Origin: a virus
Taxonomy: Duplodnaviria; Heunggongvirae; Uroviricota; Caudoviricetes
Length of the DNA stretch: 64,000 nt
IMG/VR virus record: IMGVR_UViG_3300038451_000684
Strand: one strand, 5' to 3'
Both the position numbers and the translations under genes were made by a program. Below, piece by piece: positions 4,101 to 59,784 of the stretch. How positions within the stretch are numbered: position 1 is the first letter of the stretch; each line of letters opens with the position of its first letter. The notes under the pieces are model-generated. The model had not been told where the DNA came from and made no database searches. It saw nothing but the letters and a program-made list of their open reading frames with translations.

Positions 4101-4839
4101 TCGTGCTGTTTCCGTTGATGGTGACCGTGCCCGCTGTAACAGAGGGAATGGCAATCGTCACCGTGGAGGCATTCAATACATTGACCGAGTACGGCGCTGT
4201 TCCATCGACAGGAGCTATGGTATTGGGGTAGCCTTCCGTTTCACCATAATTGAAGATCGAGTTGGTGCCCGATGGATAGTTGGTCCACGGAATTGCTGTC
4301 GCGTGAAGACTGCTTGTTTTGGTGACGCCGGATGCTTCCGTTGAAATGCTGGGCTCGGTCTGTGGCTCCTTGATGCCCATTTTGTAGATGCGGCCATCCG
4401 AGCGAACCTTGACCATGCCAAAACACGGGAAGGTCACCGCAGCCCCGCTATAAAGCGAGTTGGTCGCAATCTCCACGTTTTCCGAGGAGTCGCCGACATA
4501 GGCCCAGGGCTGGACGCTGGTATTGGGACGGAACGGCACAATGGAAACCGGATTTCCGCTCATCCCGGTGGCCACGGGGGTTGTTCCCGCGTAGAGCGAT
4601 GTGCTGGCCCCTGCGATCAAGGCGTAGCCGCTGGCCGGGCCGTTGGGCGTCGAATCATTCAACCGGTGGATGCTGTGCAGAGCGTTAGGAAGGGTTTCCA
4701 CCGCTGCCGTCAACAGATTACGGGTAGTGAAGCCGCCTTTAACGTAGGCGCGGACGTTCTGGGCCAGTGCCACCCTGCCGCTGGGGATGCGGTTGATGGG
4801 GTTGACGAGGTCCATCCCCTTGAAGTTGAGCTGTGCCAT
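1126..4839 (-). CDS. large tail fibre / host-specificity protein (1237 aa)
   Basis: Long ORF with T/S/G/N-rich low-complexity beta-strand repeats typical of phage fibres. Sits in structural module and is preceded by conserved 5'UTR element copy 1. Confidence 0.6.
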
Positions 4840-13600: not shown

Positions 13601-14342
13601 CAGTTGAGCCATTTCCCACCGCGCCGTATTGTGTCACGTCATAGCGAGGACCAATGCTGGTCAGATTTTTGGCGGCAAAAGTATTTGACACGGTGGTTGG
13701 GCTGGTAAACGTTCCGCCGGTGACAGCAAGCGTTACCGTACCCACGCCGCCGGAAGGCGACACACTCACGTTCGCGCCAGGAACAATTTGGGTAACTCCT
13801 CCGGCTGAACTGGTTGGCACCTCCACACTGACGCTGCTGCCGCTTACCTGAAACACGCCGTTGACGTAGCCGCTTGCGGCGGCTGGCGTCGTGCTGTTGA
13901 AATTGGGGTTGCTGACAGAACTTCCGTTTACGTTGACAGTCGTGCCTCCCCCCGAACCGCCGCCTGGGAAGAGGTCAGTCAACGTCACCGGCGAAGGATA
14001 GACATTCGGACTTGTTCCTCCGTTCAGTACCACATCGTAGCCTTGAGTGGTTGCTGCGAAGAACAGCCAGGAACCATCCGTGTTAGCCGTGAACGGGTTC
14101 GTCAGAACCGTGGAAGAAGAATCGGAGTAGATTGTCGCCGGCGTTGTTGTGCCGGTCAGATACACGGTCACCCTGCAGGACGGAATGACGCCTTGCAAGT
14201 AATTGGTGGAATTCAGGCCGGAGGTAGACGCTTGTTTTGCGCCCAAAACGCAGTAATTCTCAACTGCCGCCGTCTGGGCAAACGCTGGGGCCGCAAGCAA
14301 AGACACCAAAACATACAAAAATGCAGTTCTCTTCATCTTCAT
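10644..14342 (-). CDS. secreted right-handed beta-helix (pectate-lyase fold) tailspike/depolymerase-like protein (1232 aa)
   Basis: Sec signal peptide MKMKRTAFLYVLVSLLAAPAFAQ. Motif YDVTQYGAVGNGSTDDTSGIQAAY matches the GH28/pectate-lyase_3 N-terminal signature. T/S/G-rich repeats. Confidence 0.6.
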   Translation of the reverse strand: MKMKRTAFLYVLVSLLAAPAFAQTAAVENYCVLGAKQASTSGLNSTNYLQGVIPSCRVTVYLTGTTTPATIYSDSSSTVLTNPFTANTDGSWLFFAATTQGYDVVLNGGTSPNVYPSPVTLTDLFPGGGSGGGTTVNVNGSSVSNPNFNSTTPAAASGYVNGVFQVSGSSVSVEVPTSSAGGVTQIVPGANVSVSPSGGVGTVTLAVTGGTFTSPTTVSNTFAAKNLTSIGPRYDVTQYGAVGNGSTDDTSGIQAAYAACYNNGVAPRGGVVEFPGAKTYVISSTINVYDGCATEGVIETYTGGQAPPEIKWNGAAAGATSATTGFVVASNSAYITTPSSPIASVAPSHLATFTGTNSFSVHNWAIITGCTSTSSLGMNYAMGEVTSASSSQFTIATGEPLVSNGTYTDTCTATTINVAIATDSAARYQESFTNILVQGPTVTSASALGINIYYGSRVDTGTRLYNTWMQDAQYFGYYFSGGGINTNMGGGWRCDSVETSCVYWRLNAFDDLEMGVGTVDNSCSSCTSGSGGVIMVDATGRTGDIYLDMHDIKFESNTNLQSGIGMVTLLNNPNNTSTSQAFFNFNTVWNQHGGTVTTYPSIVVSPANDAALEITVVNSLMGGSAPFVGIPALSRINTMGSAGSLPFLSYSPSWSMGIRAGSSKAVLSLLGDVNIGQLYQNAVQASAFLYSDTAFGALPNGTTLLPGQIIAPPTYWKGVNGNRYAIDVVYQSGTTGTLNSGNTTCTGTSGTYVLTCSSATDLSAGQRISIGTDTNKSISYIDATNSSAVTVNLQSTLGSTYSTATALTFFTPTFGPEMQFPTKSSVAPTTLTWSQGDMEQNSGASVNGIAAWVNVAGGTPGTWAGIPLGNSSGQINTSQISNTTGSGAAVLATSPTISNPIITGAPTYLGTVAYEQDFLIKYSLAVSSGTNSQVITVTAPTTGDPAQAISAIAILTSSDALRTANIYTITGYSTDGIYIEQIASNNGSSSTQTLYLTAATSGSGTTWTFSIVNMSASSAETGVLKMIFLNDGAAFISTVTAGTAVNSTATAAPWEYAPSFQGSFSTSLVPFQSLTTTGSGAASLSGGVLNVPTPSASTLAGTTLNSTIVNSSLTSLGAVPNYVGVSTNFSCTPGAAAGTGATCVCETNHTCTTNSGDLTLTTGTGTTTGTAATVVLYGSAQTTYPNCSAEVHTAAAVSTVGYTLENSTGFTRYAFSAPAASTAYTVHYRCGY

Positions 14343-14344
14343 CC

Positions 14345-15586
14345 TTATCCCACGCGCTCCACAATCGCGTCGATCCGATATACGCCACCCGTATTGCTGG
14401 CCACCGTGGTTGTGTATTGGATTACAGTCGCAGCAGCAGCGTAATACGTCGTTGAAAGACTTTGTGCAGCCGCTAAGGTTGTTAAGGATGCCGTAGCGGA
14501 TGCCGTCCCGTTGACCGTAGCCAATACTGTTCCAGCCGAACCAGCCGTAGTGGTCTGCACGGATGCCGTCACACGGTAGATTCCTGTTGCCAGGGTGGTA
14601 TAGAGCGTAGTCGCGGCAACGCTGGACGATTGAGTCAGCAAGCTGTACTGCGCCAGTTCCAGCGCCCCCGTAAAGTGAAGCGCAGTGCCACTTAACAGAG
14701 CCATAATTCCGTCAGGAGCGACATATGTGTAGGCAGATCCACAAGTGACTTGTCCAGCCGATACGCCCGTCAGATAATTAGCCACCGTGGAGCTGACGGC
14801 GCTACTTCCAGAGAGGTTGATGTTGACCACGCTGTTATTGTTTGTGGCAAGAAATCCGCGCAAAAGCGCAAGTCCGCCATTGCTCATATCGATGTTGGTG
14901 TAAGCGCCCGTAGCCAACGATTGGCTATCGATGACGGTCAACACAGTCGCTGCCGTAGCGCTCGATGCACTCTTGAATCGCGGCGTGCCGACAACGTTCG
15001 TGAAGACTGGCGTTGCGCCAACATTCAGTGTTACTAGTGTGTTCGTCAAAATCGACATATCGAAGAAGTGTTCGTAGCCGCTGGTGAAGATGCCGCCAGT
15101 GATGGTCAACGACCCGCCAATACGCTCCGATTCAGTCGCAGTTGTTGCCGCATAGGTCAGCGTTCCAGTTGCCGTGGTGTACAGATTTTCAATGTGGAAG
15201 GCCGCGTTCAATTGCACATTGCCCGTGAACGCCCATGTCGAGCCATTGCCAAAGATGGTCATGAAATAGGCAGGGAAGGACACATTGCCGGTATAGGTAT
15301 AGCTGGATGCGGTAGGCGTGGAATAGATTACGCACGGCCCTGTTGCGCTGGCCACGCCTGCAATGAGCTGAGTCAGCGTTGTGTACGGCAGCAATTCCGT
15401 TCCATTGGGCGTATAGCTGTCCGTGCGCGTGCCGTCCAAATAAAACGAGGCTACTGACGATCCAGGATACGCAAACGATGTGGTGCCAGCCGAAGACTGG
15501 TAGGGCTCCGCTCCAGTGGTGCCGCCCGCCAGGCTTGTCGCGACCGACGTTGATCCATAATCTCCAACCTGAACTTGTCCACTCAT
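14345..15586 (-). CDS. tail fibre-like protein (413 aa)
   Basis: T/S/A/G-rich low-complexity protein adjacent to the tailspike gene. Confidence 0.5.
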   Translation of the reverse strand: MSGQVQVGDYGSTSVATSLAGGTTGAEPYQSSAGTTSFAYPGSSVASFYLDGTRTDSYTPNGTELLPYTTLTQLIAGVASATGPCVIYSTPTASSYTYTGNVSFPAYFMTIFGNGSTWAFTGNVQLNAAFHIENLYTTATGTLTYAATTATESERIGGSLTITGGIFTSGYEHFFDMSILTNTLVTLNVGATPVFTNVVGTPRFKSASSATAATVLTVIDSQSLATGAYTNIDMSNGGLALLRGFLATNNNSVVNINLSGSSAVSSTVANYLTGVSAGQVTCGSAYTYVAPDGIMALLSGTALHFTGALELAQYSLLTQSSSVAATTLYTTLATGIYRVTASVQTTTAGSAGTVLATVNGTASATASLTTLAAAQSLSTTYYAAAATVIQYTTTVASNTGGVYRIDAIVERVG

Positions 15587-15590
15587 ACTC

Positions 15591-15968
15591 TTACCTCGTC
15601 AGCAAAATGGTGACTGCTACCGTGTTTGTTAATGCAACCACTTGTGCGCGCACATACTTTGCCCAGAAAGAAGGCAATTCGAGACGACCGACATAGGAAG
15701 TATTCAACCCGCCAGTTATTGTGTTGATGGTCACAAAATGCGAATCCGTATCCACATCGGCGGTCTGAATGTCGACTTCAAACGTTCCCGGATCGCCGCT
15801 GAATGACAATTCCAGCGAGATGCCCCATGGATAAAATGCGCCGCGCTCCCGGCGCAGCTGATAGGCAATGCTGGCCGTCCCTGCCGCCACGGTTTCGTTT
15901 TGAAAGAGAAACGCTTGGCGATTCTCGTAAAGAAGTTGCGCTTGTGCTGGTCCTGTGTATGCTGGCAT
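15591..15968 (-). CDS. hypothetical structural protein (125 aa)
   Basis: ORF in the structural operon. Confidence 0.45.
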   Translation of the reverse strand: MPAYTGPAQAQLLYENRQAFLFQNETVAAGTASIAYQLRRERGAFYPWGISLELSFSGDPGTFEVDIQTADVDTDSHFVTINTITGGLNTSYVGRLELPSFWAKYVRAQVVALTNTVAVTILLTR

Positions 15969-16044: not shown

Positions 16045-17046
16045 TCCGCCAACATTGAGCTGTCCTTCCACCGTGCTGTACGGCTCGCCAAACGCCGACG
16101 GGAACCGTTCCATCCGGGTGAAGTACAGATCAACAAGATTTCTGTCCATGTTGCGAATCATTTGCAGCCGGTTGGCATATTCGGCGCGCGACGCCTGCAT
16201 CAGGAATTGCCAGTTGGCGCCCGAGCCGCGCTCCATCTCGTCGCCCTTTTGCGACTCTTTCCAGAGATAGAGCATCTCGTAGGCGCGCAGCTTTACCAGC
16301 TCTTCCGTCAGCGGAAAGGGCAGCGTATCGGCTGGATTGGTCAGCGCCGGCCAGTTTGCTTGGCAACAAAAGGTGTAGGGCAGTTGCGTAATCGGATGCG
16401 GCCACAGCTCATACAGCATCTGTCCATAAGTTGCTGAACCGGTTCGCGTGTCCTGGCCGTAGGGAACAACGTAAAGTGGCTCGTCGAAATCGGTCCGTTC
16501 CGCGTCTTCGTTGGCCAAGTCGATTTGCGTCTTGCTCCACCAGTCGAGCTGGTTGTTGTTGGTCGTGTCGCGTATGTTGTACCAGCGTTTGAAGCCTGCC
16601 GGAGCTGGATAGTAGGCTTGGTAGGCCATGTAGGTCCCGTTCGTCTGTGCGGGTTCCATCCATGGCCGGTCCAGCGTCAGCACCACGGCGGAGGTGTTTG
16701 TCGCATCGAGGGCAACGACGTTATAGAGCGAATAATACGGAACGCGGATCTGGTACTGGGTAATTAGCGGCGGGTTGGTGATCGTGGCAATCCATGCGGC
16801 CGAGGCCGTGGCGTCGCCGGTGATGGTGTTGGTAAAGGGCGTAACGGTAATTGTTCCGGGGCTGAGAAACTGCGTCGTAGGGCCGCCCAGCAGCGAGGGC
16901 GTCAGCCAGCCTCCGGTTTGAAGTTGGAAGCTCCAGACGTTTTCGTTCTGGATGGCCTGCAGGGCTTCATTGAGCTTGGTTTTGACCAAGCCAAGATTGC
17001 AACCAGGGATGCCGAGCAACTCTTGAATCATGTTTTGAAACGCCAT
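16036..17046 (-). CDS. hypothetical structural protein (336 aa)
   Basis: Long ORF with a good frame. Confidence 0.55.
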   Translation of the reverse strand: MAFQNMIQELLGIPGCNLGLVKTKLNEALQAIQNENVWSFQLQTGGWLTPSLLGGPTTQFLSPGTITVTPFTNTITGDATASAAWIATITNPPLITQYQIRVPYYSLYNVVALDATNTSAVVLTLDRPWMEPAQTNGTYMAYQAYYPAPAGFKRWYNIRDTTNNNQLDWWSKTQIDLANEDAERTDFDEPLYVVPYGQDTRTGSATYGQMLYELWPHPITQLPYTFCCQANWPALTNPADTLPFPLTEELVKLRAYEMLYLWKESQKGDEMERGSGANWQFLMQASRAEYANRLQMIRNMDRNLVDLYFTRMERFPSAFGEPYSTVEGQLNVGGWG

Positions 17047-17051
17047 GCCGC

Positions 17052-17101
17052 CACCCCTGACCCCTGACCCCTTCTCTTACCAAAACGCCTCCTGCGAGTT
17101 A
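17052..17101 (-). terminator. G-rich tract (GGGGTCAGGGGTCAGGGGTGG on mRNA strand) plus rho-independent terminator hairpin
   Basis: Minus-strand hairpin GACGCCUCUUGCG..CGCAGGAGGCGU is followed by UUUUGG, downstream of the 3' end of 17146..17712. Confidence 0.45.
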
Positions 17102-17145
17102 CCCCGCAAGAGGCGTCTGGTTTGTCTTCGGGGGAAAGACCTCGT

Positions 17146-17712
17146 TTAATACTGTCCGCCAAATCCCATCAGTTGCACCTGCTCGGCGGAAAGGTTGGCA
17201 CCGGCTGCCACTGGTGCGCCGATGGTGGAAAGAACACCTGTAAATGTTGCCGGTGTGCCTCCTGCCGCTGCCGTAAATGTTGGCGCCGAAGTGTAGTTTT
17301 TTCCAGGAGTAAGAACAATCGGCGTTGCCGTTACGGTTCCTCCTGCGGCAACCGTAATGGAAATTGCAGCTCCCGTTCCACCACCACCGCTTGTGGTAAG
17401 GGTGTAGGTGCCAGGCGTTTGTCCAGTGCCAGCCCCGGCAATTGTTGCGCTTGCAATACTGCCGCTGGTCGCAAACCGCCAGATCAGGGACCAACTGGCG
17501 CGCGGTCCGACAGCCGCCGGTTGGCCAATCACGTCGTAGGTTCCGCTCACGCTGCGGAAATTTCCGCCAATGTCATCGATGTAGTAGTTGTAGCGCGGAA
17601 GCGAAATCGGATCGCCCGTCGAAAGCAACGACGTAGGACCGCTTCCGTAACCGCACCATGTGCAGCGCAGTCCAACAAAATCCGGGTAACCATGAAGCAA
17701 TGTAAGTTGCAT
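17146..17712 (-). CDS. Ig-like decoration/head-fibre protein paralogue A (188 aa)
   Basis: Shares GGGGT...IVLTPG..TS.PT.T motif with 17764..18612. Confidence 0.5.
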   Translation of the reverse strand: MQLTLLHGYPDFVGLRCTWCGYGSGPTSLLSTGDPISLPRYNYYIDDIGGNFRSVSGTYDVIGQPAAVGPRASWSLIWRFATSGSIASATIAGAGTGQTPGTYTLTTSGGGGTGAAISITVAAGGTVTATPIVLTPGKNYTSAPTFTAAAGGTPATFTGVLSTIGAPVAAGANLSAEQVQLMGFGGQY

Positions 17713-17763
17713 TGCCGCTCCTTGTTGAAGTTCCGGCGACGGATTACCGTCGCCGGAAAGGTG

Positions 17764-18612
17764 TTAGTCCTGAACCGTCGCGCAAGCATATCCAAGAACA
17801 ATCTTGAATGGCGTAGTCGCCGTCGATCCGGTAGTCACAGGATCAAGGACAAGACCGATCACATATGGTGTGATGGTCGTAACCGAAGCAGGCATCAAGC
17901 CAATTGGGGTGGAACCCATAGCAGTCGCAACTGCCCAATTGTTTACAGCTTGCGCAGCTCCTGCCACGGACAGTACGGTAGCCACTCCGAGTTCCTGCAC
18001 AAATCCATAGTTGCCCGGTGTAATTGAGTTTAAGAAAACCACTGGGCGAACCATGTTGGTGGAAATATCTGCGCTGGTAACTTGGTTTACGCTATAACCC
18101 ATTTCAACGGTAAGCGTCGCAGGTGTTCCATCCGTGCCTGTCAGTGTGGCGGTTGGCAGCGATGTGAATCCAGTACCCGGTGTCAAAACGATTGGCGGGG
18201 CAATGGTCGTTGCGGTCAGCACCACAATTTGAATCGTCGCTTGTGTCGTACCGCCGCCGCCTGCAGTGGTAACGATGTAGGTGCCCGGTGCCATGCCAGA
18301 GCCAGCTACAAGCTGGTAAACGTTTTGCACAAAAGTGCCTGGTTGGATGTATCCCACCGTGTTCGTCTTCACATTGGCCGCAGTGGCATTCGACGCCACC
18401 TGCACATAGCGATAGCGTCCCGAGTGCAGCAAGCCGTTGGTCGTGTAGGATGCAGAGTTGGCTTCCTGCTCCGTGGCGTCAAAGTAGTCGCCCAGGTTCA
18501 GGCCACCTGCCGCAAAGGGCAAACCAGTGCGTAGATCCGTAAGCGCGGTCGGCGAGGTGAAGTTCGCGTTATTCCATGCTGTCCAAGTTGGAACAATCTG
18601 TTGCAGTGGCAT
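17764..18612 (-). CDS. Ig-like decoration/head-fibre protein paralogue B (282 aa)
   Basis: Paralogue of 17146..17712. Lies next to the capsid gene. Confidence 0.5.
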   Translation of the reverse strand: MPLQQIVPTWTAWNNANFTSPTALTDLRTGLPFAAGGLNLGDYFDATEQEANSASYTTNGLLHSGRYRYVQVASNATAANVKTNTVGYIQPGTFVQNVYQLVAGSGMAPGTYIVTTAGGGGTTQATIQIVVLTATTIAPPIVLTPGTGFTSLPTATLTGTDGTPATLTVEMGYSVNQVTSADISTNMVRPVVFLNSITPGNYGFVQELGVATVLSVAGAAQAVNNWAVATAMGSTPIGLMPASVTTITPYVIGLVLDPVTTGSTATTPFKIVLGYACATVQD

Positions 18613-44258: not shown

Positions 44259-44549
44259 ATGAATTTCACAGGACATCAGGCACGCGTTTTGGCTGGCATT
44301 CCGCCGCTGGTAGAAGATGCGACATGGAAGGCCATCGCTCCGCAAGATCAGCACCGCATCGAGTGTGAGCATTTCCATGCGTGCGGAGAAGATGCGACGT
44401 GGACCACGCGGCAAGGCACTCTTTGCGTCTGCGATTATCATCGCTTCACTGCGGACATTCAGCGCATCATCAAAGCCCTGACGATCCAGAACCAGAACTT
44501 TTTGATTCCTGCTGTTGAGAGGCCGTCGCATGAACGAATCAGCGCATGA
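44259..44549 (+). CDS. Cys/His-rich hypothetical protein (96 aa)
   Basis: Residues CEHFHACGED...CVCDYH. GGGAAGGGAAG RBS. Confidence 0.4.
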   Translation: MNFTGHQARVLAGIPPLVEDATWKAIAPQDQHRIECEHFHACGEDATWTTRQGTLCVCDYHRFTADIQRIIKALTIQNQNFLIPAVERPSHERISA

Positions 44550-45207
44550 CCAAAAGCGGATGGCGGCGGGGTTCGTTGTCATGGCCTGCATGATGGTTCT
44601 CGTTCTTTGGCGCTGGCACCAGCGGCAATTGGACTTGGGAATTCGACATCGCACGGCGCATTTGGAGCGCGAAAATGAACAAATGCGCTACTACGCCGAA
44701 CACGATGATCTGACCGGCTTATGGAATCGCCGCATGATTCTCCAGCGGTTGCATCAAGAAGTGAACCGCGCACAACGCGACCACACCCCCTTGAGCGTTG
44801 TTTTGCTTGATCTGGACCATTTCAAGCGGGTCAACGACACATTCGGCCATCCGGGCGGGGATCTGGTTCTCGAAAAGGTTAGCGCCATCTTGCAGAATTT
44901 TGTGCGTTCTTATGATTGGGTCGGCCGTTGCGGAGGCGAAGAGTTTTTGTTGATTCTCCCAGGAGCCAATTTGCTCAATGCGCAAACGCGCGCCGAACAA
45001 TTACGGCAAACCATCGCTTTGTCAGAGTTTTTGCACGACGGCGCACTGATCCAGATCACGACTAGCTTAGGGGTTGTTTGCAGCTTCCCGGCTATGTGTG
45101 ACGGTCTGATCCGCACCGTCGACTCCGCGCTCTACGAAGCCAAAAAGAAGGGAAGGAACTGCGTCGTGGCGATTGAGATGAAACCTTGCGAAAGGGAAAA
45201 TCGATGA
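44515..45207 (+). CDS. membrane-anchored GGDEF-domain diguanylate cyclase (start 44515 or 44530)
   Basis: One N-terminal TM helix. The canonical LLDLDHFKRVNDTFGHPGGDLVL and RCGGEEF active-site motifs are both present. Confidence 0.8.
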   Translation: MRGRRMNESAHDQKRMAAGFVVMACMMVLVLWRWHQRQLDLGIRHRTAHLERENEQMRYYAEHDDLTGLWNRRMILQRLHQEVNRAQRDHTPLSVVLLDLDHFKRVNDTFGHPGGDLVLEKVSAILQNFVRSYDWVGRCGGEEFLLILPGANLLNAQTRAEQLRQTIALSEFLHDGALIQITTSLGVVCSFPAMCDGLIRTVDSALYEAKKKGRNCVVAIEMKPCERENR

Positions 45208-46602: not shown

Positions 46603-47286
46603 ATGACCGATGTTTTTGCATATCTGCGCGTCTCCGGCCCCAGCCAGCTTCGCGGTGACGGCTTCCGGCGGCAGTTCATCGCCATTCGGAAATACTGCGT
46701 CGCGAACCAGTTGCATATCGTCCGCATCTTCAAAGAGCGCGGCATCTGCGGCGCAACGGAACTTGAGAACCGACCGGCGCTTTCCGAACTTTTCAATGCG
46801 CTTGAATCAGACGGCGTCAAGGCGGTGGTGATTGAGCGGCTGGACCGGCTGGCGCGCGATCTCATGGTGCAGGAAACCATCATCGCCGATATGCAGAAAT
46901 CGGGTTATGTGCTGCATTCCAGCTGTGAGCCCGATCTTTGTTCGATAGATCCCAGCCGCGTGCTGGTGCGGCAAATCTTCGGCGCAATCGCGCAGTATGA
47001 GAAGTGCATGATCGTACTCAAGCTGCGCGGCGCCCGGCAACGCAAGAAGGCCCGTGGTGAGCGGGGAGAGGGCCGCCACGCTTACGGAGAGAAGCCCGGC
47101 GAGGAAGTGACCTTGCAGCGGATTCTTGCTCTTCAATCCACCGGCCATTCAACGCGCGCCATTGCCAATTTTCTCAATACGGCGGGCGACGCCACACGCA
47201 TGGGCGGCACCTGGAAGCCCGGCACGGTAGCCAAAATTCTGGCGCGCGACTCAACAAAAGAAAAGATTCACCACGCTTGCGCGTAA
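46603..47286 (+). CDS. small serine recombinase (resolvase/invertase family, 227 aa)
   Basis: N-terminus MTDVFAYLRVSGPSQ carries the catalytic Ser motif. C-terminal HTH GHSTRAIANFL. Ends 60 bp before CRISPR array 1. Confidence 0.75.
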   Translation: MTDVFAYLRVSGPSQLRGDGFRRQFIAIRKYCVANQLHIVRIFKERGICGATELENRPALSELFNALESDGVKAVVIERLDRLARDLMVQETIIADMQKSGYVLHSSCEPDLCSIDPSRVLVRQIFGAIAQYEKCMIVLKLRGARQRKKARGERGEGRHAYGEKPGEEVTLQRILALQSTGHSTRAIANFLNTAGDATRMGGTWKPGTVAKILARDSTKEKIHHACA

Positions 47287-47345
47287 ATTGCGCATTTTGA
47301 CGATTGGTTCGCGGCCGGCAATTGGCAAACGAGAGGCTGCCACGG

Positions 47346-48383
47346 GTTGCATCAACAGATGTACTGAAAATTCCTTGCTACCATATTGATGATTCTTTGG
47401 AGCTCGTGCGTACAGTTGCATCGAACAGATGCACTTAAAATTCCTTGCTACCTCTCCTTGGAAGCGCTGCTTGGGCTGCATTGCGTTGCATCGAACAGAT
47501 GCACTGAAAGTTCCTTGCGACGCCATTTCGCAAGCAACGATATGAAAGGCCAGCTGTTGCATCGAACTGATGCACTGAAAATTCGTTGCTACCGCCAAAT
47601 TACTCTGGGACGACACTGCAAAATTTGGTTGCATCAAACAGATGCACTGAAAGTTCCTTGCTACGCTGATAGCTCTTGGATATTGCAACGGAATCAAAGT
47701 TGCATCAAACAGATGCACTGAAAGTTCCTTGCTACTGTCTTTCTGCGGAACGGGCCTAGCTAGGAAAAGAGTTGCATCAAACAGATGCACTGAAAGTTCC
47801 TTGCTACGGAACGGGATAAAGGCCGGCGGCGGGCGTCTCGATGTTGCATCAAACAGATGCACTGAAAGTTCCTTGCTACACCTTACATGCTTACCGCAGA
47901 CTGCACATGGTTGGGTTGCATCAAACAGATGCACTGAAAGTTCCTTGCTACGAAATTTCCCTTGACGTAATAGGTGAACCCTGATTGTTGCATCAAACAG
48001 ATGCACTGAAAGTTCCTTGCTACCCCAAGTTCCTTCTGATGGCGCGTGCAATGCAACAGGTTGCATCAAACAGATGCACTGAAAGTTCCTTGCTACATTG
48101 TGGCAGGGGACTACAAGTGTCAACCTTGGTGTTGCATCAAACAGATGCACTGAAAGTTCCTTGCTACTACGAGCCGGGCGACGTGGTGCGCTATGCGAAG
48201 AAGTTGCATCAAACAGATGCACTGAAAGTTCCTTGCTACGTCCCGCAACGCGCAACGGTCAGGCGATTGACATGTTGCATCAAACAGATGCACTGAAAGT
48301 TCCTTGCTACATGTCATCTGGAACTGCGTTTGTCGGCCAGTCACGGTTGCATCAAACAGATGCACTGAAAGTTCCTTGCTACC
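47346..48383 (-). CRISPR. CRISPR array 1: 15 repeats of 37 bp, 14 unique spacers of 33-36 bp, no adjacent cas gene
   Basis: Repeat, read on + strand, is GTTGCATCAAACAGATGCACTGAAAGTTCCTTGCTAC. Eleven repeats are identical and the four at the 47346 end are degenerate (one has a 1-nt deletion). The AT-richer leader-like sequence at 48384-48560 therefore implies minus-strand transcription. Confidence 0.85.
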
Positions 48384-48559
48384 GCTCGATTATAACTCTT
48401 TTGTTTTGAATGGCTCCAATCCGCTTTCCGCTAACCTCGACTAGGAGCGCCTCGTCGGTTGTGACATAGAATACATGAATCATCCAATCCCCTTCAAAAT
48501 CATCATTTTACCCCTTCCGCGAACCTCCCGGCTTTTGGCCGTAGCTGGGGGTTCGCGCT

Positions 48560-48985
48560 TTACGAATTCCACACTTGGAGTTCCCATGTCCGCCGGGCAA
48601 GCAAATCTTTGTTCGCCTTACCGCCCGTCTCGTCCCATCGCAGCAGTTGCTTTCCGGCCGCCGCGTACTGTTGCTGGTTGAGCAATTCCAGCAACGTGGA
48701 TTTCTGCAAGCGGCCGGCGCCCAGGTTGTACACAAAATCCACCAGCGCGTCGAACTGGCCTTGCGTCAGCGACACTTTCACCAGCGTCTCCACCTGCGAT
48801 TCCACTTTGGCTACATCCTCTTCAAACGCTATTTTCGCTTGGAGCGTAGTCCAAACCAGCCCGGCATGGACCTCCGGCCCATGGTGGCCATAACCGATGG
48901 CCCAGCCGCTCACGTCCCATTTCGCCTGCAGGATCAGGCCTTCGGACTGTTGAATGCGATCAAGTAGCTTCTGGGATGCCTTCAT
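48560..48985 (-). CDS. GH24 phage lysozyme (endolysin, 141 aa)
   Basis: Catalytic E/D region IQQSEGLILQAKWDVSGWAIGYGHH and motif GQFDALVDFVYNLG are both conserved T4/lambda-type lysozyme features. Confidence 0.8.
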   Translation of the reverse strand: MKASQKLLDRIQQSEGLILQAKWDVSGWAIGYGHHGPEVHAGLVWTTLQAKIAFEEDVAKVESQVETLVKVSLTQGQFDALVDFVYNLGAGRLQKSTLLELLNQQQYAAAGKQLLRWDETGGKANKDLLARRTWELQVWNS

Positions 48986-49542
48986 CGTATTGCCTCCGCA
49001 TATTCACGCATCAGCGTCTTTTGTAAAAATTGAGAATAGGCGCGCAACGCCACCCCGCGCCCCACATCCTGGCATCGATCGATGAAGAACACGCCATGCA
49101 GATGATCGATCTCGTGCTGCACAATCCGCGCGGCCTGCGCCTTGTAAATCGAGCGCTGAACGGCGTCGGGATCTTGCAGCGTTCCGCTGCGCACATCTAC
49201 GATTTCGCTGCGCCATACGCGCGCCTTGACTTCGCCAGTGGGCGGCAAGCTCAAGCAGCTTTCCGATTCCAGCAGATCCTTTCCCGACAAATTCACGATC
49301 TCTGGATTGATCAGCACATGCACGTTTTTATAGGGCGGGATCTGAAAAATAGCTAACTGAATAAAAATGCCGACTTGCGGCGCGGCCAGCCCTGTTTCGT
49401 TATGCTGTTTCATTAACCGCGTCATTTCTTGCACCAGCTTTGTCAAGGCTTGCAAGTTGTCCAGCTTTACCACCCGCCGGCACGGTTTGTTCACAAGCTC
49501 CGGTCGATAGTATTCCAGGGATAGTTTTCCTAACTCCAGCAC
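48982..49542 (-). CDS. def: peptide deformylase (186 aa)
   Basis: All three PDF motifs are present: GLAAPQVG, ESCLSLP (EGCLS) and QHEIDHLHG (HExxH). Confidence 0.8.
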   Translation of the reverse strand: MLELGKLSLEYYRPELVNKPCRRVVKLDNLQALTKLVQEMTRLMKQHNETGLAAPQVGIFIQLAIFQIPPYKNVHVLINPEIVNLSGKDLLESESCLSLPPTGEVKARVWRSEIVDVRSGTLQDPDAVQRSIYKAQAARIVQHEIDHLHGVFFIDRCQDVGRGVALRAYSQFLQKTLMREYAEAIR

Positions 49543-49661
49543 AGGTCGCTCCTAGGACGGTGGATAAATCCTTCGTCAGAGCGCATTGTAAATCGATTTT
49601 AAAACAGGCATTCTAATACGTCACAAAGTCGAAAAAGGTATAGATTGAATCGTCAAAACAC

Positions 49662-50138
49662 CTAATTCATTTTAGATAAATCCGACTTTTTCTGGAAGGC
49701 ATCCAAGCTGCGGTTCAGGGGCTCCAAATTGAGAGGAAATCCATACTCGACCATAAGCTGCACGGCGACGGCCGCCAGCGCGACTTCTTTTAATTGCCGG
49801 TTTTCATTTTCCAGATTCTTGACTTGTTTTTTTTGCGCCAGAAGAAGTTTTCTCCACCAATAATTCCGAACAACAAGGACAACGCACAAGAAAAGCGTGA
49901 CGACGGCATTCATCCATCCCAGCCACCTGCCCCGTATCGCATCGATGGCCATGATCGCGCCGTTGCCGCAAAGCAAAAGGCAGTTCGAGATATCGTAACC
50001 GACAAAAAGCGCCGTTTGCCGCCGCGGCGTGATGCCGCCCCACCAGCGTTCAATCGCCTCAATCATTTTGCGCATTGCGTTCCTTTCAGCCAATCCTGGT
50101 ACGTCGAACAACTGTTTGCTGCGCGCTGTCAATACCAA
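49662..50138 (-). CDS. membrane protein (158 aa)
   Basis: Two or three TM helices and a coiled-coil KQVKNLENENRQLKE segment. Confidence 0.45.
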   Translation of the reverse strand: MVLTARSKQLFDVPGLAERNAMRKMIEAIERWWGGITPRRQTALFVGYDISNCLLLCGNGAIMAIDAIRGRWLGWMNAVVTLFLCVVLVVRNYWWRKLLLAQKKQVKNLENENRQLKEVALAAVAVQLMVEYGFPLNLEPLNRSLDAFQKKSDLSKMN

Positions 50139-50500
50139 AGAAACGTCAGCTCCGCCCAGTTGAGCACCTTCGGGTTTGACATCTGCTCATGATAGCTGCT
50201 GGCTTCGGCCAGGCGTTTCATGAAAATCGGCTGGTAGGCAAACTCCTCGGCGTGCCGACCGTCTTCTTCGTAGTTCGCTGAGGTGTAGACAAAACACTTG
50301 GTGTATTCGGGCATCGGCTGCCCAGGTATCAGGCCCGCCCGCACCTCCCATGCCGCCTTGAGCCGTGTCGCTTTCGCAGCTTCCTCTGCATGCCAGAGAT
50401 GCGTATCGGGATCAACAACAATCCAATGGCCGCACTTCGCGCAAATCGTTCTCTCTTTAACCGGATTCATCGGTACATGACCGCAAACGGTCTCACTCAT
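50129..50500 (-). CDS. Cys-rich hypothetical protein (123 aa)
   Basis: CGHV...CAKCGHW zinc-ribbon-like N-terminus. Confidence 0.4.
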   Translation of the reverse strand: MSETVCGHVPMNPVKERTICAKCGHWIVVDPDTHLWHAEEAAKATRLKAAWEVRAGLIPGQPMPEYTKCFVYTSANYEEDGRHAEEFAYQPIFMKRLAEASSYHEQMSNPKVLNWAELTFLWY

Positions 50501-50723
50501 GACTTTTCACCTTTTCCACCTTCGTCCAAGGATAACCGTCTGTCGTGCAGACCAGTTCAGGGTCGCGCTCCAGTCGCGCGAAGATCCCCATCAATTTTGC
50601 GTTTGCGCTCGCCTCGAAGCAGGAGTAGCGCCCAGCCTCCAGCACCCGCGCCTTGACGGTTTCGTAGGTCGGCTTCTTCAAGTTCAACGTCGAATCGAAA
50701 CGGCAAAGATGTGCGTAACTCAA
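50493..50723 (-). CDS. hypothetical protein (76 aa)
   Basis: ORF only. Confidence 0.35.
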   Translation of the reverse strand: MSYAHLCRFDSTLNLKKPTYETVKARVLEAGRYSCFEASANAKLMGIFARLERDPELVCTTDGYPWTKVEKVKSHE

Positions 50724-50883
50724 GACTCAACCTTTCTTGCTTTGCTGCGGCGCAATCTGAGGCTTCCGCTTTGCGGCGGCGCACAGTGCTGCGACAACAA
50801 AACCAATGGCAAAGCCCCAAAACACGCCAACAATCAAACCAATCCAAAAGGGAATTATATACTTGACTTCCGTGGGCCATAAG

Positions 50884-51525
50884 TTAGCCCCATTGCTCGG
50901 CAAATGCGGTGGCAATGCCAGGATAGGTGATTGAACGCCGTTGCTGTCGGGTGAGACCGTTTTTGATTCCAGGAGATTCATAATGCACCCTCGGTACTCT
51001 TCCATCGACGATATTAGACGGCTGCAAAAGTGGAAGACCTTTCAGCCAAAGACACGTTCCCTTGGTTTCGCCGTGCCCAAACTGCCAAGGCTGGATAATC
51101 TGGTCGGGCTTGCGCCAGCGACTCGACATCAAGCCAATGGGGTTCTCTATAGCGATCTTCGGGATGTCGGCATTGGCGAACAGCATGAACAGGTCTATCG
51201 CTTGTATCTGCTCTGCCTGTTTATCCTTCCACCATCGAGCGCCACTGACCGCAAGACGAGTGCAAGGAGGAAAGGCAATCATCATGTCCCACTGATAGGT
51301 GTATGGCAGCAAAGCATCCCAAGCGTCACCTACGATGTGGAACTCACTCCCATCAGCAGCCGGGAGAATATCGAGGGACCAAGCATCATGGCCCCGCTCA
51401 CGGAAGGCGCGTCTGACCGCGCCGGAAAACTCACACGCGATCAGGATTTTCAAGTTTCTTCTCTTTCCTCTTCCGTTTCTTGGCTGCTTTGCTCTTCGGT
51501 TTTGGCTTATAGGCCAGTACCACAT
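50884..51525 (-). CDS. IS passenger gene: protein with C5-cytosine-methyltransferase-like motifs (213 aa)
   Basis: AFPPCTRLAVSG resembles motif IV (PC) and IENPIGL resembles motif VI (ENV). It is too short for a complete Dcm-type enzyme, so function is uncertain. Confidence 0.35.
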   Translation of the reverse strand: MWYWPISQNRRAKQPRNGRGKRRNLKILIACEFSGAVRRAFRERGHDAWSLDILPAADGSEFHIVGDAWDALLPYTYQWDMMIAFPPCTRLAVSGARWWKDKQAEQIQAIDLFMLFANADIPKIAIENPIGLMSSRWRKPDQIIQPWQFGHGETKGTCLWLKGLPLLQPSNIVDGRVPRVHYESPGIKNGLTRQQRRSITYPGIATAFAEQWG

Positions 51526-51558
51526 CGGTTATCTTATCCAACACTTCGGGCGTTTCTT

Positions 51559-52476
51559 TCATGCTGTCAGCCTCTTATAAGTCAAACGCTGCCCGTCAAC
51601 CGCGGAAATGAACGAGTCCAGCCGGTCCAAGGTGTGATTGGCCACGTTACCAGCATTCAGCCGGAAGGTGACTTCATTGACGTATCGAGCAACGTGCTTG
51701 GCGCTGATGTGATGCCAAGTGCCGTAGACGCCGCGTTTCAGGAGTGCCCACACAGACTCGATACCATTGGTGTGGACTTCGCCCCGGCTGTACTCGCCAG
51801 CGCCGTGATTCACGGTCGCATGGCTGTAGAACAGTCCATCCATGCCCTGATAGCCGCTGGCCTCATCCGTCATGACTTTGGAGCCAATCTCGACGTTATC
51901 CAGGACTGCGCCTTGAAGAGCCTCTTTATCGGTGTTCTCAACTGGAAACGCAATCGTCCGACCACCGCGCTCCCTGAGTCCCACAACGGCGGTCTTGCCA
52001 ACAGCGCCCCGGCCCATGTGGAGTTTCTTCGACTCGTGTTTGTTGGCTTCCTTGCCGCCTACAAAGCACTCATCCACTTCAATCAGGCCGGACAGTTTAT
52101 CCATCTTTCCGGCGCAAGCCTCACGCAGCCGCTGCAACATAAACCAGGCCGTCTTCTGAGTCACGCCGATCTCTTTAGCGAGTTGCATCGAACTGATTCC
52201 CTTCCGCGCCGTGACTACGAGGTACATGGCATAAACCCACTTGTGGAGCGGTACATGCGACCGCTCAAAAATTGTGCCGGTGCGGACCGTGAAAGTAGTT
52301 TCGCAGCGGTTGCAACGGTAAAAGTCACCCTTGCGGTTGGTGATGCGCTCACGGCCCGCGCATGTCGGGCACGTAACGCCATCGGGCCAAAGTCTAGATT
52401 CCAGATAGAGCCTTGCGGTTTCCGCATCTGGGATCAGGTTGAACAACTCGAACGTGCTGATTGTACTCTTGCTCAT
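51559..52476 (-). CDS. IS1595-family (ISXO2-like) DDE transposase (305 aa)
   Basis: N-terminal zinc finger CPTCAG...CNRC. Core IEVDECFVGG...HATVNHGAGEYSRGEVHTNGIESVWALLKRG...HISAKHV is typical of DDE_Tnp_IS1595. Confidence 0.75.
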   Translation of the reverse strand: MSKSTISTFELFNLIPDAETARLYLESRLWPDGVTCPTCAGRERITNRKGDFYRCNRCETTFTVRTGTIFERSHVPLHKWVYAMYLVVTARKGISSMQLAKEIGVTQKTAWFMLQRLREACAGKMDKLSGLIEVDECFVGGKEANKHESKKLHMGRGAVGKTAVVGLRERGGRTIAFPVENTDKEALQGAVLDNVEIGSKVMTDEASGYQGMDGLFYSHATVNHGAGEYSRGEVHTNGIESVWALLKRGVYGTWHHISAKHVARYVNEVTFRLNAGNVANHTLDRLDSFISAVDGQRLTYKRLTA

Positions 52477-52542
52477 GAGTTAAAGATACTTGAGTTCCCC
52501 ACGGAAGTCAAGTATATAATTCCCATCCAAAATCCAGTCATG

Positions 52543-52923
52543 CTACTCCTCTACGGCCGCTCCTTGATTCGTTTCGGCTTCATCTTCCGGCCATGCCGGT
52601 CCCAGCGGATGATCGCCACAAACCGGCGTCAACGGCGCGTGTTTCTTGCCCTTCCCGAGCACTGGCAACCCAGGCGCGCTCAGACTATGCGCATAGAACT
52701 CGCAAAGCATGGTCCACATTACCTTGCGTCGCTTGCCGCATTCCGCGCAGGGAACCGCTTGGTTAAAGCGCAGAAACCGGACGGCGACCCGTGCTTCTTC
52801 CGTGAACATAGGATTCGGTTTGGCTTCCAGAATCTGGACGACCAGGATCTCGCGCTTTTTGGCTAATCCCTTACCCCTAGTCCCTAACCCCTGTTTTTTC
52901 ACAGCCAGACCTCCACGATGCAC
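52543..52923 (-). CDS. hypothetical Cys-containing protein (start uncertain, probably ~52809)
   Basis: The N-terminal 38 codons of the track ORF are encoded by the CCCTAA repeat island and are probably 5'UTR. The stop overlaps (ATGA) the start of the split membrane-protein gene. Confidence 0.35.
   Translation of the reverse strand: MHRGGLAVKKQGLGTRGKGLAKKREILVVQILEAKPNPMFTEEARVAVRFLRFNQAVPCAECGKRRKVMWTMLCEFYAHSLSAPGLPVLGKGKKHAPLTPVCGDHPLGPAWPEDEAETNQGAAVEE
52863..52893. repeat. telomere-like C-rich island ctaatcccttacccctagtccctaacccctg
   Basis: Same CCCTAA/CCCCTA unit family as the 6318, 15987, 17052, 53876 and 62970 sites. Confidence 0.55.
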
Positions 52924-53150
52924 GGATCATCGTCCTTGAAGCGCTCCAAGCAAAAGAGCCCCGGCGGAACGCTCAAGCGGATCTCTTCCAGTGTATTTGC
53001 CAGAGCTATGTCGTCGGTCATCTGCATCACACCAGGCTCCCGTATCTCCCAGCGCCGCATCATGTACTTGTCGGGAAAGTCGCGCGGATGATCGTAGATC
53101 ACCCACTGCGACATGACCAGATGCGGAGTAACGGTCGAGTCGTCTTCCAT
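52899..53150 (-). CDS. hypothetical protein (~83 aa, start MEDDSTV with GGGGAGG RBS)
   Basis: The longer track ORF would read into CRISPR array 2. An internal start has a good RBS 7 nt upstream. Confidence 0.35.
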   Translation of the reverse strand: MEDDSTVTPHLVMSQWVIYDHPRDFPDKYMMRRWEIREPGVMQMTDDIALANTLEEIRLSVPPGLFCLERFKDDDPCIVEVWL

Positions 53151-53265
53151 GCAATGCCTCCCCGTAAATTGCATCGGCCTCCCGGCCGGCTGTAGTGCGG
53201 GCGTCCCCGCCCGCGCTGGTTCATGATTAGCTACCAATTCATTCCCTTGTTCCCACACTTCCATC

Positions 53266-53866
53266 GTTGCATCGAACAGATGCACTGAAAATTCTTTGCT
53301 ACGAAAGTTTGCCACCGAGGTCGTAATCAGTGCGATGAGTTGCATCAAACTGATGCACTTAAAATTCGTTGCTACAGCGTCGATTCCCGCAGCAAATGGA
53401 TTCGATCATGTTGCATCGAACAGATGCACTGAAAGTTCCTTGCGACTCACGAACGCTTATCTTACGGACGTGATCGGACTGTTGCATCGAACAGATGCAC
53501 TTAAAATCCGTTGCTACGGATGGCTGCCAAACGCCTCGGGAATCTTGAAAAGGTTGCATCGAGCTGATGCACTGAAAATTCATTGCTACGTTGAGCACTT
53601 CTGCTGCGCGATCGGTCGGCACGCCGTTGCATCGAACTGATGCACTGAAAGTTTGTTGCTACCTTGCGGGGCCATGTATCTCTGAAGCCGCACTGCGCGT
53701 TGCATCAAACTGATGCACTGAAAATTCCTTGCTACGTTCCATGAGTCCTGATAGAAACAAGAGGCCCTTGTTGCATCGAACAGATGCACTTAAAATTCCT
53801 TGCTACCGAGGTCAAAACGGCAGCGAGTGGATGGCAGTGCGTTGCATCGAACAGATGCACTGAAAA
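53266..53866. CRISPR. CRISPR array 2: 9 degenerate copies of the same 37-bp repeat (last truncated), 8 spacers of 34-36 bp
   Basis: Repeats are GTTGCATCGAACAGATGCACTGAAAATTCTTTGCTAC and variants, each differing by 1-4 nt from the array-1 consensus. Orientation is ambiguous and no cas gene is present. Confidence 0.8.
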
Positions 53867-53875
53867 AAGCAGGAA

Positions 53876-53950
53876 ACAGGGAATAGGGATCAGGGATTAG
53901 TTTATAAATATCTATAAACTAACCCCTGATCCCTAACTCCTAATCCCTGC
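53876..53950. repeat. ~75-bp imperfect palindrome of telomere-like units with core GGGATTAGTTTATAAATATCTATAAACTAACCCCT
   Basis: Arms cagggaatagggatcagggattagtttata and tataaactaacccctgatccctaactcctaatccctg. Related to the 6318..6412 palindrome. Confidence 0.65.
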
Positions 53951-58885: not shown

Positions 58886-59172
58886 ACAGGGAACAGTGTT
58901 CACTGTTTCTTCGGCTTTACATGCGGCCAGGTGCGGCGATCTTCGCCACCGGTGTTCCAACTGGGCTTCCGGCATGTGCGGTTCCAGCATCGCTTGGGCA
59001 ATGGTTTGCTCTCATCGTAGATTTTACGAGCTTTACACACATCGCAGACCAGAATTTTCCCAATAGTAATCACGTTTTTAATTTACCGTATTAGCTTTCT
59101 TTTCTCAAACAAAGTGGTGCATTGCGCCACTTTGTTTGGTACAATGTACCTAATGCGGGGGGAGGACGAACA

Positions 59173-59784
59173 ATGTGCGCTGGAATTTATTTGCTCGGCT
59201 CCGAAGAAGATACTTATCTCACGGAAAAGCAGCTGCAAAAAATGCAAGCATGTGTTGCCAGAAACGGCTGGAAAACAGTCCACGTTTACCGCGATACCGC
59301 TCCCGTTGTCAAAAAAGACCGGCCGGCTTTCCGAAAAATGATGAAGGATGCTCAACAGCATCGTTTCGACCGCCTCCTCTTCTGGTCGCTGGATCAACTG
59401 CAACATGGCGCGAGAAAGACGACGCTGCTGTTGAATAACCTTTCCAGTTGGGGCATCGGCTTCTGCTCCTGCACAGAGCCGCACATCAACACTTGCCATG
59501 AGCGGAAAGACACCGTCATTGCCGTTTTGGCTTCTCTGGCCCAGCAAGATAGTGCGCACATTTCGGAGCGCACACGCGCCGGCCTCGAACGGCAACAGAT
59601 CACCCGCAAGCCCGGTCCTCATGGACGCTTGGGACCGGGACGCCCGCCGGTCGAATTCAATCAAGAACGCGCCAAAGCCCTGCGCGCCAAGAACAAGTCC
59701 TACGATCAAATCGCCATGGCTTGCGGCATTTCCAAAGCGACCATACAACGGTTTTTCAAAAGCATGGAAAAGCCTAATTCCTAG
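59173..59784 (+). CDS. small serine recombinase (resolvase family, 203 aa)
   Basis: Start MCAGIYLLGSEED after GGGGGGAGGACGAACA RBS. Resolvase core plus C-terminal HTH (KSYDQIAMACGISKATIQRFF). The active-site Arg is replaced (YLLGS), so activity is uncertain. Confidence 0.55.
   Translation: MCAGIYLLGSEEDTYLTEKQLQKMQACVARNGWKTVHVYRDTAPVVKKDRPAFRKMMKDAQQHRFDRLLFWSLDQLQHGARKTTLLLNNLSSWGIGFCSCTEPHINTCHERKDTVIAVLASLAQQDSAHISERTRAGLERQQITRKPGPHGRLGPGRPPVEFNQERAKALRAKNKSYDQIAMACGISKATIQRFFKSMEKPNS

Follow-up and report, generated by a model that had tools for sequence, protein, structure and literature searches.

Candidate satellite CRISPR arrays of a phage-encoded, Cas12m-like type V system in a divergent phage genome

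The virus record IMGVR_UViG_3300038451_000684 (Caudoviricetes), of which a stretch of 64,000 nt (hereafter the window) was analysed, carries two CRISPR arrays that share a 37-nt repeat. A sequence-only reading had described them as a cas-less viral system that borrows the effector of its host. That description is probably wrong: the repeat is the one that belongs with a Cas12m-like effector encoded by the same phage clade, and we give a probability of about 0.6 to the reading that the arrays are functional satellite arrays of a phage-encoded, single-effector type V system with its effector gene elsewhere in the genome.

Arrays of one repeat family in the window strain

The sizes reported by the sequence-only reading, 15 repeats and 14 spacers for the first array, 9 and 8 for the second, were exact, and all 24 repeat copies were recovered in register at a period of 70–73 nt (Table 1). 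At up to three mismatches, the 37-nt repeat as given there finds 17 sites in the window and none in 100 of 100 shuffles. Both arrays have the make-up of a generic CRISPR array, that is, at least three direct repeats of 23–47 nt at a constant period with unique spacers of similar length, for which the chance expectation is 0. The suggestion that the repeat family is uncatalogued also held, the repeat being missing from Rfam and its exact 26-nt core occurring in 0 of 185,579 species genomes; an Rfam scan and a tRNA scan of the window were both empty.

Read in the CRISPR RNA (crRNA) sense, on the minus strand, the repeat of array 1 is GTAGCAAGGAACTTTCAGTGCATCTGTTTGATGCAAC. The 11 leader-proximal repeats (47628–48382) are identical and the other four (47346–47592) are variant, the last of them (47346–47382) lacking 1 nt of the loop. 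Array 2 consists of variant repeats throughout (9/9), differing in the 5′ half or the loop while keeping the 3′ handle AGTGCATC-N5-GATGCAAC (9/9); the first repeat in the crRNA sense (53841–53877) retains nothing but this handle. The same array 2, save single-base differences, is present in the JGI contigs L139 and L117, the latter being cut within the array's first spacer. Both arrays were assigned to the minus strand because all effector-linked arrays of the family are co-oriented with the effector and carry the hairpin at the repeat 3′ end; the position of the degenerate repeats of array 1, at its 47346 end, also bears on this call. In the crRNA sense, array 2 lies upstream and array 1 downstream.

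Logan contigs from SRR13021960 match the window exactly and carry the sequence on for 8.3 kb on its left side and 3.3 kb on its right. A window strain of 82.8 kb was pieced together from L043, L007, the window, L006 and L169, reaching in window coordinates from −14.3 kb (L043) to +68.4 kb (L169); L169 is 100% identical to the window-strain contig L168 across their 1,491-nt overlap. A third array of the same family stands in the left extension, which brings the window strain to at least three satellite arrays, 31 guides and 34 repeats in 20 distinct variants. We ruled out that array 3 is the remnant of a collapsed effector locus, since relatives possess an equivalent array by the same helix-turn-helix (HTH) gene pair in addition to an effector locus. 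Open reading frames (ORFs) of 103–334 aa that run through array 1 (47251–48255, minus; 47386–48409, plus) were rejected as genes; they are artefacts of repeat periodicity, with peptide motifs such as SKELSVHLFDAT. In related contigs, gene callers had annotated array-spanning ORFs of this artefact type.

Table 1. Arrays and associated features; positions refer to the window unless another contig is named.
Feature	Position	Strand	Description
CRISPR array 1, main satellite array	47346..48382	−	15 repeats of 37 nt, 14 unique spacers of 32–36 nt
Array 1 leader	48383..48560	−	72–76% identical over ~170 nt to leaders of arrays at other loci
CRISPR array 2	53266..53877	−	9 repeats, 8 spacers of 34–36 nt
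Third array, same family	8.3–9.0 kb left of window position 1 (L043:3780–4460; end of L007)	crRNA sense plus, opposite to arrays 1 and 2	10 repeats, 9 spacers
Palindrome	53884..53935	.	24-bp perfect stem and AT-rich 4-nt loop; directly upstream (crRNA sense) of array 2, after the stop of a 186-aa gene (53962)
Inter-array gene cassette	48560..53265	−	lysozyme 48560–48985, peptide deformylase 48982–49542, small ORFs (Pfam Phage_lysozyme, Pep_deformylase)
IS1595-family insertion sequence	50848..52522	−	within the cassette; Pfam DDE_Tnp_IS1595, E 1.8e-44; complete
Small serine recombinase, 235 aa	46579..47286	+	Pfam Resolvase, E 9.6e-25; convergent with array 1

The repeat belongs to a Cas12m-like effector family

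The exact repeat core was found in only two contigs of IMG/VR, where arrays of 25 and 6 repeats flank a 754-aa ORF with RuvC D/E/D motifs (GLDVGW, IVETN, QDHNTAVN) and a CxxC...CxxC zinc ribbon. The family to which this ORF belongs comprises at least 107 clusters at 90% identity, its full-length members measure 725–783 aa, and a RuvC D/E-E-D triad is present across the whole of it. A profile built from 25 members matched Cas12m (23vw_A) at E 8e-22, with TnpB and Cas12f far lower and no Cas12j or Cas12l sequence matching at E ≤ 1; the Pfam family Cas12f1-like_TNB was matched at E 2e-4, below the gathering score. An AlphaFold2 model of the effector (predicted local distance difference test score 82.4, predicted template modelling score 0.62) gave Foldseek matches of which the top four were all Cas12m or Cas12m2 (Cas12m2 8hhl at E 8.6e-20; Cas12m 8pm4), with template modelling (TM) scores of 0.43–0.53, while CasLambda matched much more weakly (TM 0.27–0.29). 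By profile and modelled fold, the effector is a larger, distant relative of the type V-M protein Cas12m.

Physical linkage of the repeat family to the cas gene is seen in L003 and L173, with related repeats at more than 20 loci, and at every locus with the repeat beside the gene the repeat reads GTAGCAA(G/C)GAACTTTCAGTGCATC-N5-GATGCAAC in the crRNA sense. A short array, the effector and a main array, all co-oriented, follow one another in L009, L010, L017 and more than 20 further effector loci. The module, which is conserved over many peat-bog contigs, begins with MazEF, a 180-aa gene and DUF7873, continues through the short array, the effector and the main array of ~1.4 kb, and goes on with a 58-aa gene, HNH, PDDEXK, RecT, an HTH gene, tyrosine integrase, AlpA and a methylase. 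Gene tables of the effector loci contain none of the Pfam families of Cas1, Cas2 and Cas4.

A short, degenerate, co-oriented array precedes each phage effector gene examined (L009:9839–10020, L010:9642–9963, L003:12428–12850 and their equivalents), and also the gene at L017, a locus from a metagenome-assembled genome (MAG). By analogy with the regulatory mini-arrays of PMC10120712, the short upstream array might autoregulate the effector. Beside the module in L150, L153 and L162, ~8–10 kb upstream of the effector, stands a gene for a 601-aa thiamine-pyrophosphate enzyme, either an auxiliary metabolic gene or a mark of the prophage–host junction.

Effector homologues at 48–59% identity are encoded in Terracidiphilus and Acidobacteriaceae MAGs, and at least two of the MAG effectors sit in a plainly chromosomal context (CcmF, OEP, MacB/FtsX, GGDEF), beside 1–6 repeats with the same handle. 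These chromosomal homologues in peat MAGs point to peat Acidobacteriaceae as the hosts. The sequence-only reading had proposed a search of the host for cas operons with the same repeat; the Acidobacteriaceae MAG loci have the 21-nt handle only, and the exact core is absent from the species genomes searched.

Effector carriers are relatives of the window phage

A metagenome scan for the handle returned at least 120 loci, of which all, or almost all, came from samples of peat and bog, and more than 50 of these have genes in common with the window. The 120-kb contig Ga0224528_1000028 is collinear with window positions 22.9–57.8 kb at 60–92% amino acid identity, repeats the window's layout of serine recombinase, array, peptide deformylase and array, and carries an effector (P0138) further on. 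The 90-kb contig Ga0255348_1000020 likewise has arrays at positions equivalent to those of the window and an effector further along. At the right end, the IMG/VR effector contigs L173 and L172 overlap window coordinates 62492–67544 at 84–99.7% nucleotide identity: positions 19344–19735 of L173 correspond to window 62883–62492 (a 392-nt segment, 99.7%), 16170–18357 to 65154–63024 (84%), and 15048–15869 to +67544 to +66707 (92%). Extrapolation from these contigs places the effector at window-equivalent 81.9–84.2 kb, on the minus strand; in them, integrase, RecT, PDDEXK and the main array come between the window end and the effector.

The arrays themselves provide further links. Five of the 20 repeat variants of the window strain recur identically in the effector-flanking arrays of L173/L172, and none is common to other relatives. 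The window spacer at 47880–47914 overlaps a spacer of the effector locus L003 (L003:8629–8662) by 29 nt at a 6-nt offset, which suggests two independent acquisitions from one target. Two contigs occur together in sample JGI 3300044798: L170, which over 2.1 kb around the antirepressor gene is 99.6% identical to the window strain, and the effector contig UViG_3300044798_000659. Taken together, shared genes, gene order and repeats indicate that the window phage is in the same clade as the effector-carrying phages. The sequence-only reading had held that a cas operon immediately outside the window, with the arrays belonging to it, would refute a phage-borne cas-less system; an effector gene is indeed present in the closest relatives, but it is a single gene, some 17.9 kb beyond the window and not adjacent.

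Conservation of the handle and of the leader

The 3′ 21 nt of the repeat form a hairpin (6-bp stem, 5-nt loop), which is the minimum-free-energy fold in repeats from three lineages. Among the window-strain repeats, AGTGCATC-N5-GATGCAAC is kept in 33 of 34, with the 5′ half and the loop varying. At L010, the stem shows a compensatory T-A to C-G change; the clade-wide collection of handles was selected by a pattern that fixes the stem. The restriction of drift to the 5′ half and loop, with the handle intact, indicates purifying selection on the part that an effector would read. The satellite arrays L062, L110, L061 and L111 (Ga0224528_1000028 and Ga0255348_1000020) take this further, with 14 of 16 and 11 of 11 repeats distinct and the 21-nt handle in all, so that arrays can apparently persist with the handle alone under selection.

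The array 1 leader has a homologue in L009 that lies directly between the effector stop codon and the first repeat. The array 1 leader itself ends in TTCAAAACAAAAGAGTTATAAT (fuller end ...AAGAGTTATAAT), a sequence that matches the −10 hexamer perfectly and stops 6 nt short of repeat 1. A scan for consensus promoters did not flag the array 1 leader, the best −35 match being 19 nt away. The 11 identical leader-proximal repeats carry 11 different spacers, the pattern expected of real spacer acquisition. Arrays at equivalent loci in relatives have no spacer in common with those of the window, and spacers have therefore turned over since the lineages diverged.

These observations were set against a reading in which the arrays are decaying relics without working guides, kept as repeated DNA, for instance as homology patches for mosaic recombination. 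Such decay would accommodate the fact that every repeat of array 2 differs, the location of arrays at mosaic-module boundaries in many relatives, and two results given below, the loss of repeat-spacer units between samples and the lack of targets. It fits poorly with a handle intact in all but one repeat, a conserved leader with its −10 hexamer, identical leader-proximal repeats that each hold another spacer, and entirely different spacers in the same-locus arrays of relatives, and we regard it as improbable.

Proposed mechanism

In the working model, arrays 1 and 2 would be transcribed from the minus strand, with the conserved leader of array 1 driving transcription there. The hairpin at the repeat end, AGUGCAUC-N5-GAUGCAAC, would become the 5′ handle of each crRNA, followed by a guide of 32–36 nt. 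The effector would bind this handle and process the transcript without a trans-activating crRNA (tracrRNA), then find matching DNA in competing mobile elements and either silence it by binding, as Cas12m does, or cut it; the RuvC D/E-E-D triad is intact. Cas12m is known to use a single, self-processed crRNA and to bind DNA without cutting (PMC11013384, PMC10442227). Since cleavage is lacking in D-E-D Cas12m proteins too (PMC11013384), sequence does not decide between cleavage and binding. The effector gene would lie between its own short array and the main array, beside the PDDEXK nuclease, RecT and tyrosine integrase, at the place where the closest relatives have it, ~18 kb past the right end of the window and co-oriented with arrays 1 and 2.

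Is the effector carried by the window strain?

The sequence-only reading had seen no Cas protein in 64 kb, and three approaches bore this out. A tblastn search of the window with the cognate effector gave a best E of 1.3; the effector-family profile hidden Markov model, run against all six-frame ORFs of the window and 18.8 kb of recovered flanks, gave a best E of 0.97; and PADLOC assigned no cas family among ten proteins scanned, which included the eight largest ORFs.

Several results weigh against a functional system with its effector in the same genome. No effector is present in the 82.8 kb of the window strain. Beyond +67.56 kb, L169 diverges from the effector-carrying IMG/VR contigs, and these lack the antirepressor gene of the window strain; they are therefore mosaic relatives and not the same genome. 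No cas1 or cas2 was seen near any effector to account for spacer acquisition. Between samples, array 1 differs by internal deletions only (two units fewer in L139, ten fewer in L016), its leader-end spacers being unchanged and no new ones appearing there. Lastly, 0 of 31 spacers has a protospacer in the databases and related loci searched.

The foremost rival holds that the window strain is truly effector-less, and that its three arrays are expressed and aimed at competitors through a Cas12m-like effector supplied in trans, by a co-resident prophage of the clade or by an Acidobacteriaceae chromosome. In addition to the lack of the gene in the 82.8 kb and the divergence past +67.56 kb, this rival draws on a handle conserved across effectors 48–100% identical to one another, chromosomal copies included, so that a foreign effector could plausibly load the guides, and on the co-occurrence in JGI 3300044798 of a near-identical variant of the window strain and an effector carrier with the same repeat variants. 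However, three syntenic relatives have the effector at the same relative position; the contigs of relatives span 90–130 kb, so that 10–40 kb of the window strain is probably unseen, which is room enough for the effector module; and the absence of the exact repeat core from all species genomes searched means that no identical host repeat is known, unlike in classical viral mini-arrays. We hold supply in trans to be possible but doubtful. A guide-only phage is put forward just as tentatively: the effector would have been lost, the 31 guides would arm the effectors of sister prophages or of Acidobacteriaceae, and array 1, with its 11 identical leader-proximal repeats, would have grown through adaptation machinery acting in trans, since no family member with cas1 or cas2 is found. 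Satellite arrays with an effector encoded in the unseen part of the same genome remain the reading we prefer.

The claim that the spacers are aimed at competing mobile elements was not confirmed by the searches made. The window spacers did not match the phage itself; the 22 window spacers had no match in INPHARED, nor did all 31 spacers in PLSDB; exact scans of IMG/VR with the cores of four spacers found nothing; and 517 unique spacers of the clade had no match in 1.3 Mb of fetched related loci with arrays masked. The arrays might also be RNA decoys of the RNA anti-CRISPR kind, their abundant handle-carrying transcripts sequestering a Cas12m-like effector of the host before it can be armed against the phage. 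The hosts of the clade do carry chromosomal effectors that use the same handle, and phage-borne, Cas-inhibiting repeat units have been described (PMC11656645). Known RNA anti-CRISPRs, however, are solitary repeat units, whereas here the unique spacers number 14, 8 and 9, at canonical length, and the full arrays show a conserved leader and spacer turnover; and as the phage clade encodes an effector, inhibition would be self-defeating. The decoy explanation is accordingly the least credible of those weighed here, and a very unlikely one.

Relation to known systems

By profile and fold, the effector is nearest to type V-M (Cas12m, formerly V-U1; MmCas12m2 8HHL, GoCas12m 8PM4), which is enriched on plasmids and present in some prophages (PMC11656645). 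The family shares with it a lone effector protein that bears RuvC at its C terminus together with a zinc-ribbon TNB domain, the lack of cas1, cas2 and cas4 nearby, an internal repeat hairpin, no sign of a tracrRNA (as judged from the hairpin), and carriage by mobile elements. It differs in the size of the effector (725–783 aa against ~600 aa, about 150 longer and outside the type V-M range), which is 14–15% identical to Cas12m; in the flanking of the effector by arrays on both sides; in further arrays tens of kb from the effector, each with a portable copy of the leader; and in its hosts, peat-bog Acidobacteriaceae. The window and its 18.8 kb of flanks also lack the effector gene that a type V-M locus contains.

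Cas-less viral mini-arrays, as far as they are portrayed in the sources consulted, have 1–2 spacers, repeats identical to those of the host and spacers that mostly match related viruses (Medvedeva et al. 2019 via PMC10120712; PMC11656645, PMC7099407). The window arrays resemble them in lying within a virus genome with no cas gene nearby, in the presumed competition between elements, and in the overlap of one spacer with that of a related phage, which suggests a common target. They depart from them on three of five criteria, namely spacer number (14, 8 and 9 in the window strain), host-repeat identity (0 of the 185,579 species genomes) and spacer matches to related viruses (no such match over 1.3 Mb of related phages); moreover, the phage clade encodes its own effector. 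Nor are they the single repeat of an RNA anti-CRISPR or solitary repeat unit, being full arrays with canonical spacers.

A parallel in outline is offered by CasPhi (Cas12j), CasLambda (Cas12l) and the Thermus-phage Cas12r (bioRxiv 10.64898/2026.04.20.719267), hypercompact phage Cas12 systems of 700–800 aa with one or more arrays, no adaptation module, a 3′ repeat hairpin and no need of tracrRNA; the present system would probably share this outline. The present effector falls outside those families, and its phages are temperate, of 90–130 kb and not huge, with arrays dispersed round the genome. Compact Cas12 proteins in phages and type V-M in prophages are thus already known, and the general idea is not new. 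In the literature searched, we found no description of this effector clade or of the dispersed-array architecture. Apparently undescribed are a clade of larger Cas12m-like effectors that is widespread in temperate phages of peat-bog Acidobacteriaceae and occurs in chromosomes as well; a distributed architecture in which one effector serves up to five or more arrays over tens of kb, with portable 175-nt leaders; arrays in which the 21-nt crRNA handle alone is constant while the rest of the repeat drifts; and evidence that spacers have turned over and repeats been duplicated where no adaptation gene is seen. The family offers a natural system in which to study the acquisition, expression and loading of satellite arrays and spacer acquisition in trans, as well as a new compact effector family for engineering. 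For genome scans, it counsels that arrays without cas in 64 kb be compared with relatives before they are labelled cas-less.

Genes around the arrays and phage identity

The sequence-only reading had placed the arrays within a phage genome, and this was upheld. The window encodes a terminase large subunit (PHROG, E 2e-8), a major head protein (E 1e-4) and a lysozyme (Pfam Phage_lysozyme); a pRha/ANT antirepressor lies just past the window and a cluster of six tRNA genes further left. INPHARED contains no match to the window phage. These matches support the phage identity, but weakly so, given how divergent the phage is. To the left of array 3 stand a Flp-pilin-like gene, an AbrB/PIN toxin-antitoxin pair and the six tRNA genes (Tyr, Ser, Ser, Leu, Leu, Leu).

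The gene cassette between the arrays is outside the CRISPR machinery and fills the slot that, in the effector loci of the family, lies between the short upstream array and the main array. Its peptide deformylase gene overlaps the start of the lysozyme gene and is conserved in relatives. The insertion sequence within the cassette encodes a 305-aa transposase (51559–52476) and a 213-aa passenger (50884–51525) without a Pfam match, and has terminal inverted repeats of 24 bp (AATTATATACTTGACTTCCGTGGG), with ATCCAAAA as its 8-bp target duplication. The window and L013 contain this element, and the otherwise 97–99.9% identical L014 and L139 do not; it has therefore been mobile recently, and it is unrelated to CRISPR function.

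Two candidates within the cassette were rejected. A 641-aa plus-strand ORF (50941–52866), considered as a hidden effector, is a shadow ORF over the transposase and passenger genes and has no similarity to the effector profile. A 16-nt exact partial repeat at 52182–52197 (GTTGCATCGAACTGAT, the 5′ end of the plus-strand repeat), considered as a tracrRNA or a solitary repeat, was dismissed because it lies in the zinc-ribbon codons of the transposase (RCN), lacks the 5′ arm of the hairpin and belongs to an insertion sequence missing from sister contigs. Chance probably explains it, even if the odds of a 16-mer match are low (roughly 1e-4 to 1e-3).

The palindrome upstream of array 2 folds at −52.1 kcal/mol (z = −8.3), a value equalled by 0 of 200 shuffles; it may serve as a terminator, a regulatory or operator site, or a recombination site. 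Homologues of the serine recombinase that converges with array 1 adjoin the equivalent array in L062, L040 and L141, and a second small serine recombinase of the resolvase/invertase type is encoded at window 59122–59784. Invertase activity is conceivable from sequence comparison, because the segment that comprises the HTH gene pair and its adjacent array is oppositely oriented in the window strain and Ga0255348_1000020.

Two ORFs of 1237 and 1232 aa (1126–4839 and 10644–14342) in the structural region have no PHROGs or PADLOC match; in a phage this divergent, they presumably encode proteins of the tail or fibres. A GGDEF diguanylate cyclase with an N-terminal membrane segment is encoded at window 44515–45207 (Pfam, E 7.8e-45), and this phage protein may manipulate the cyclic di-GMP signalling of the host.

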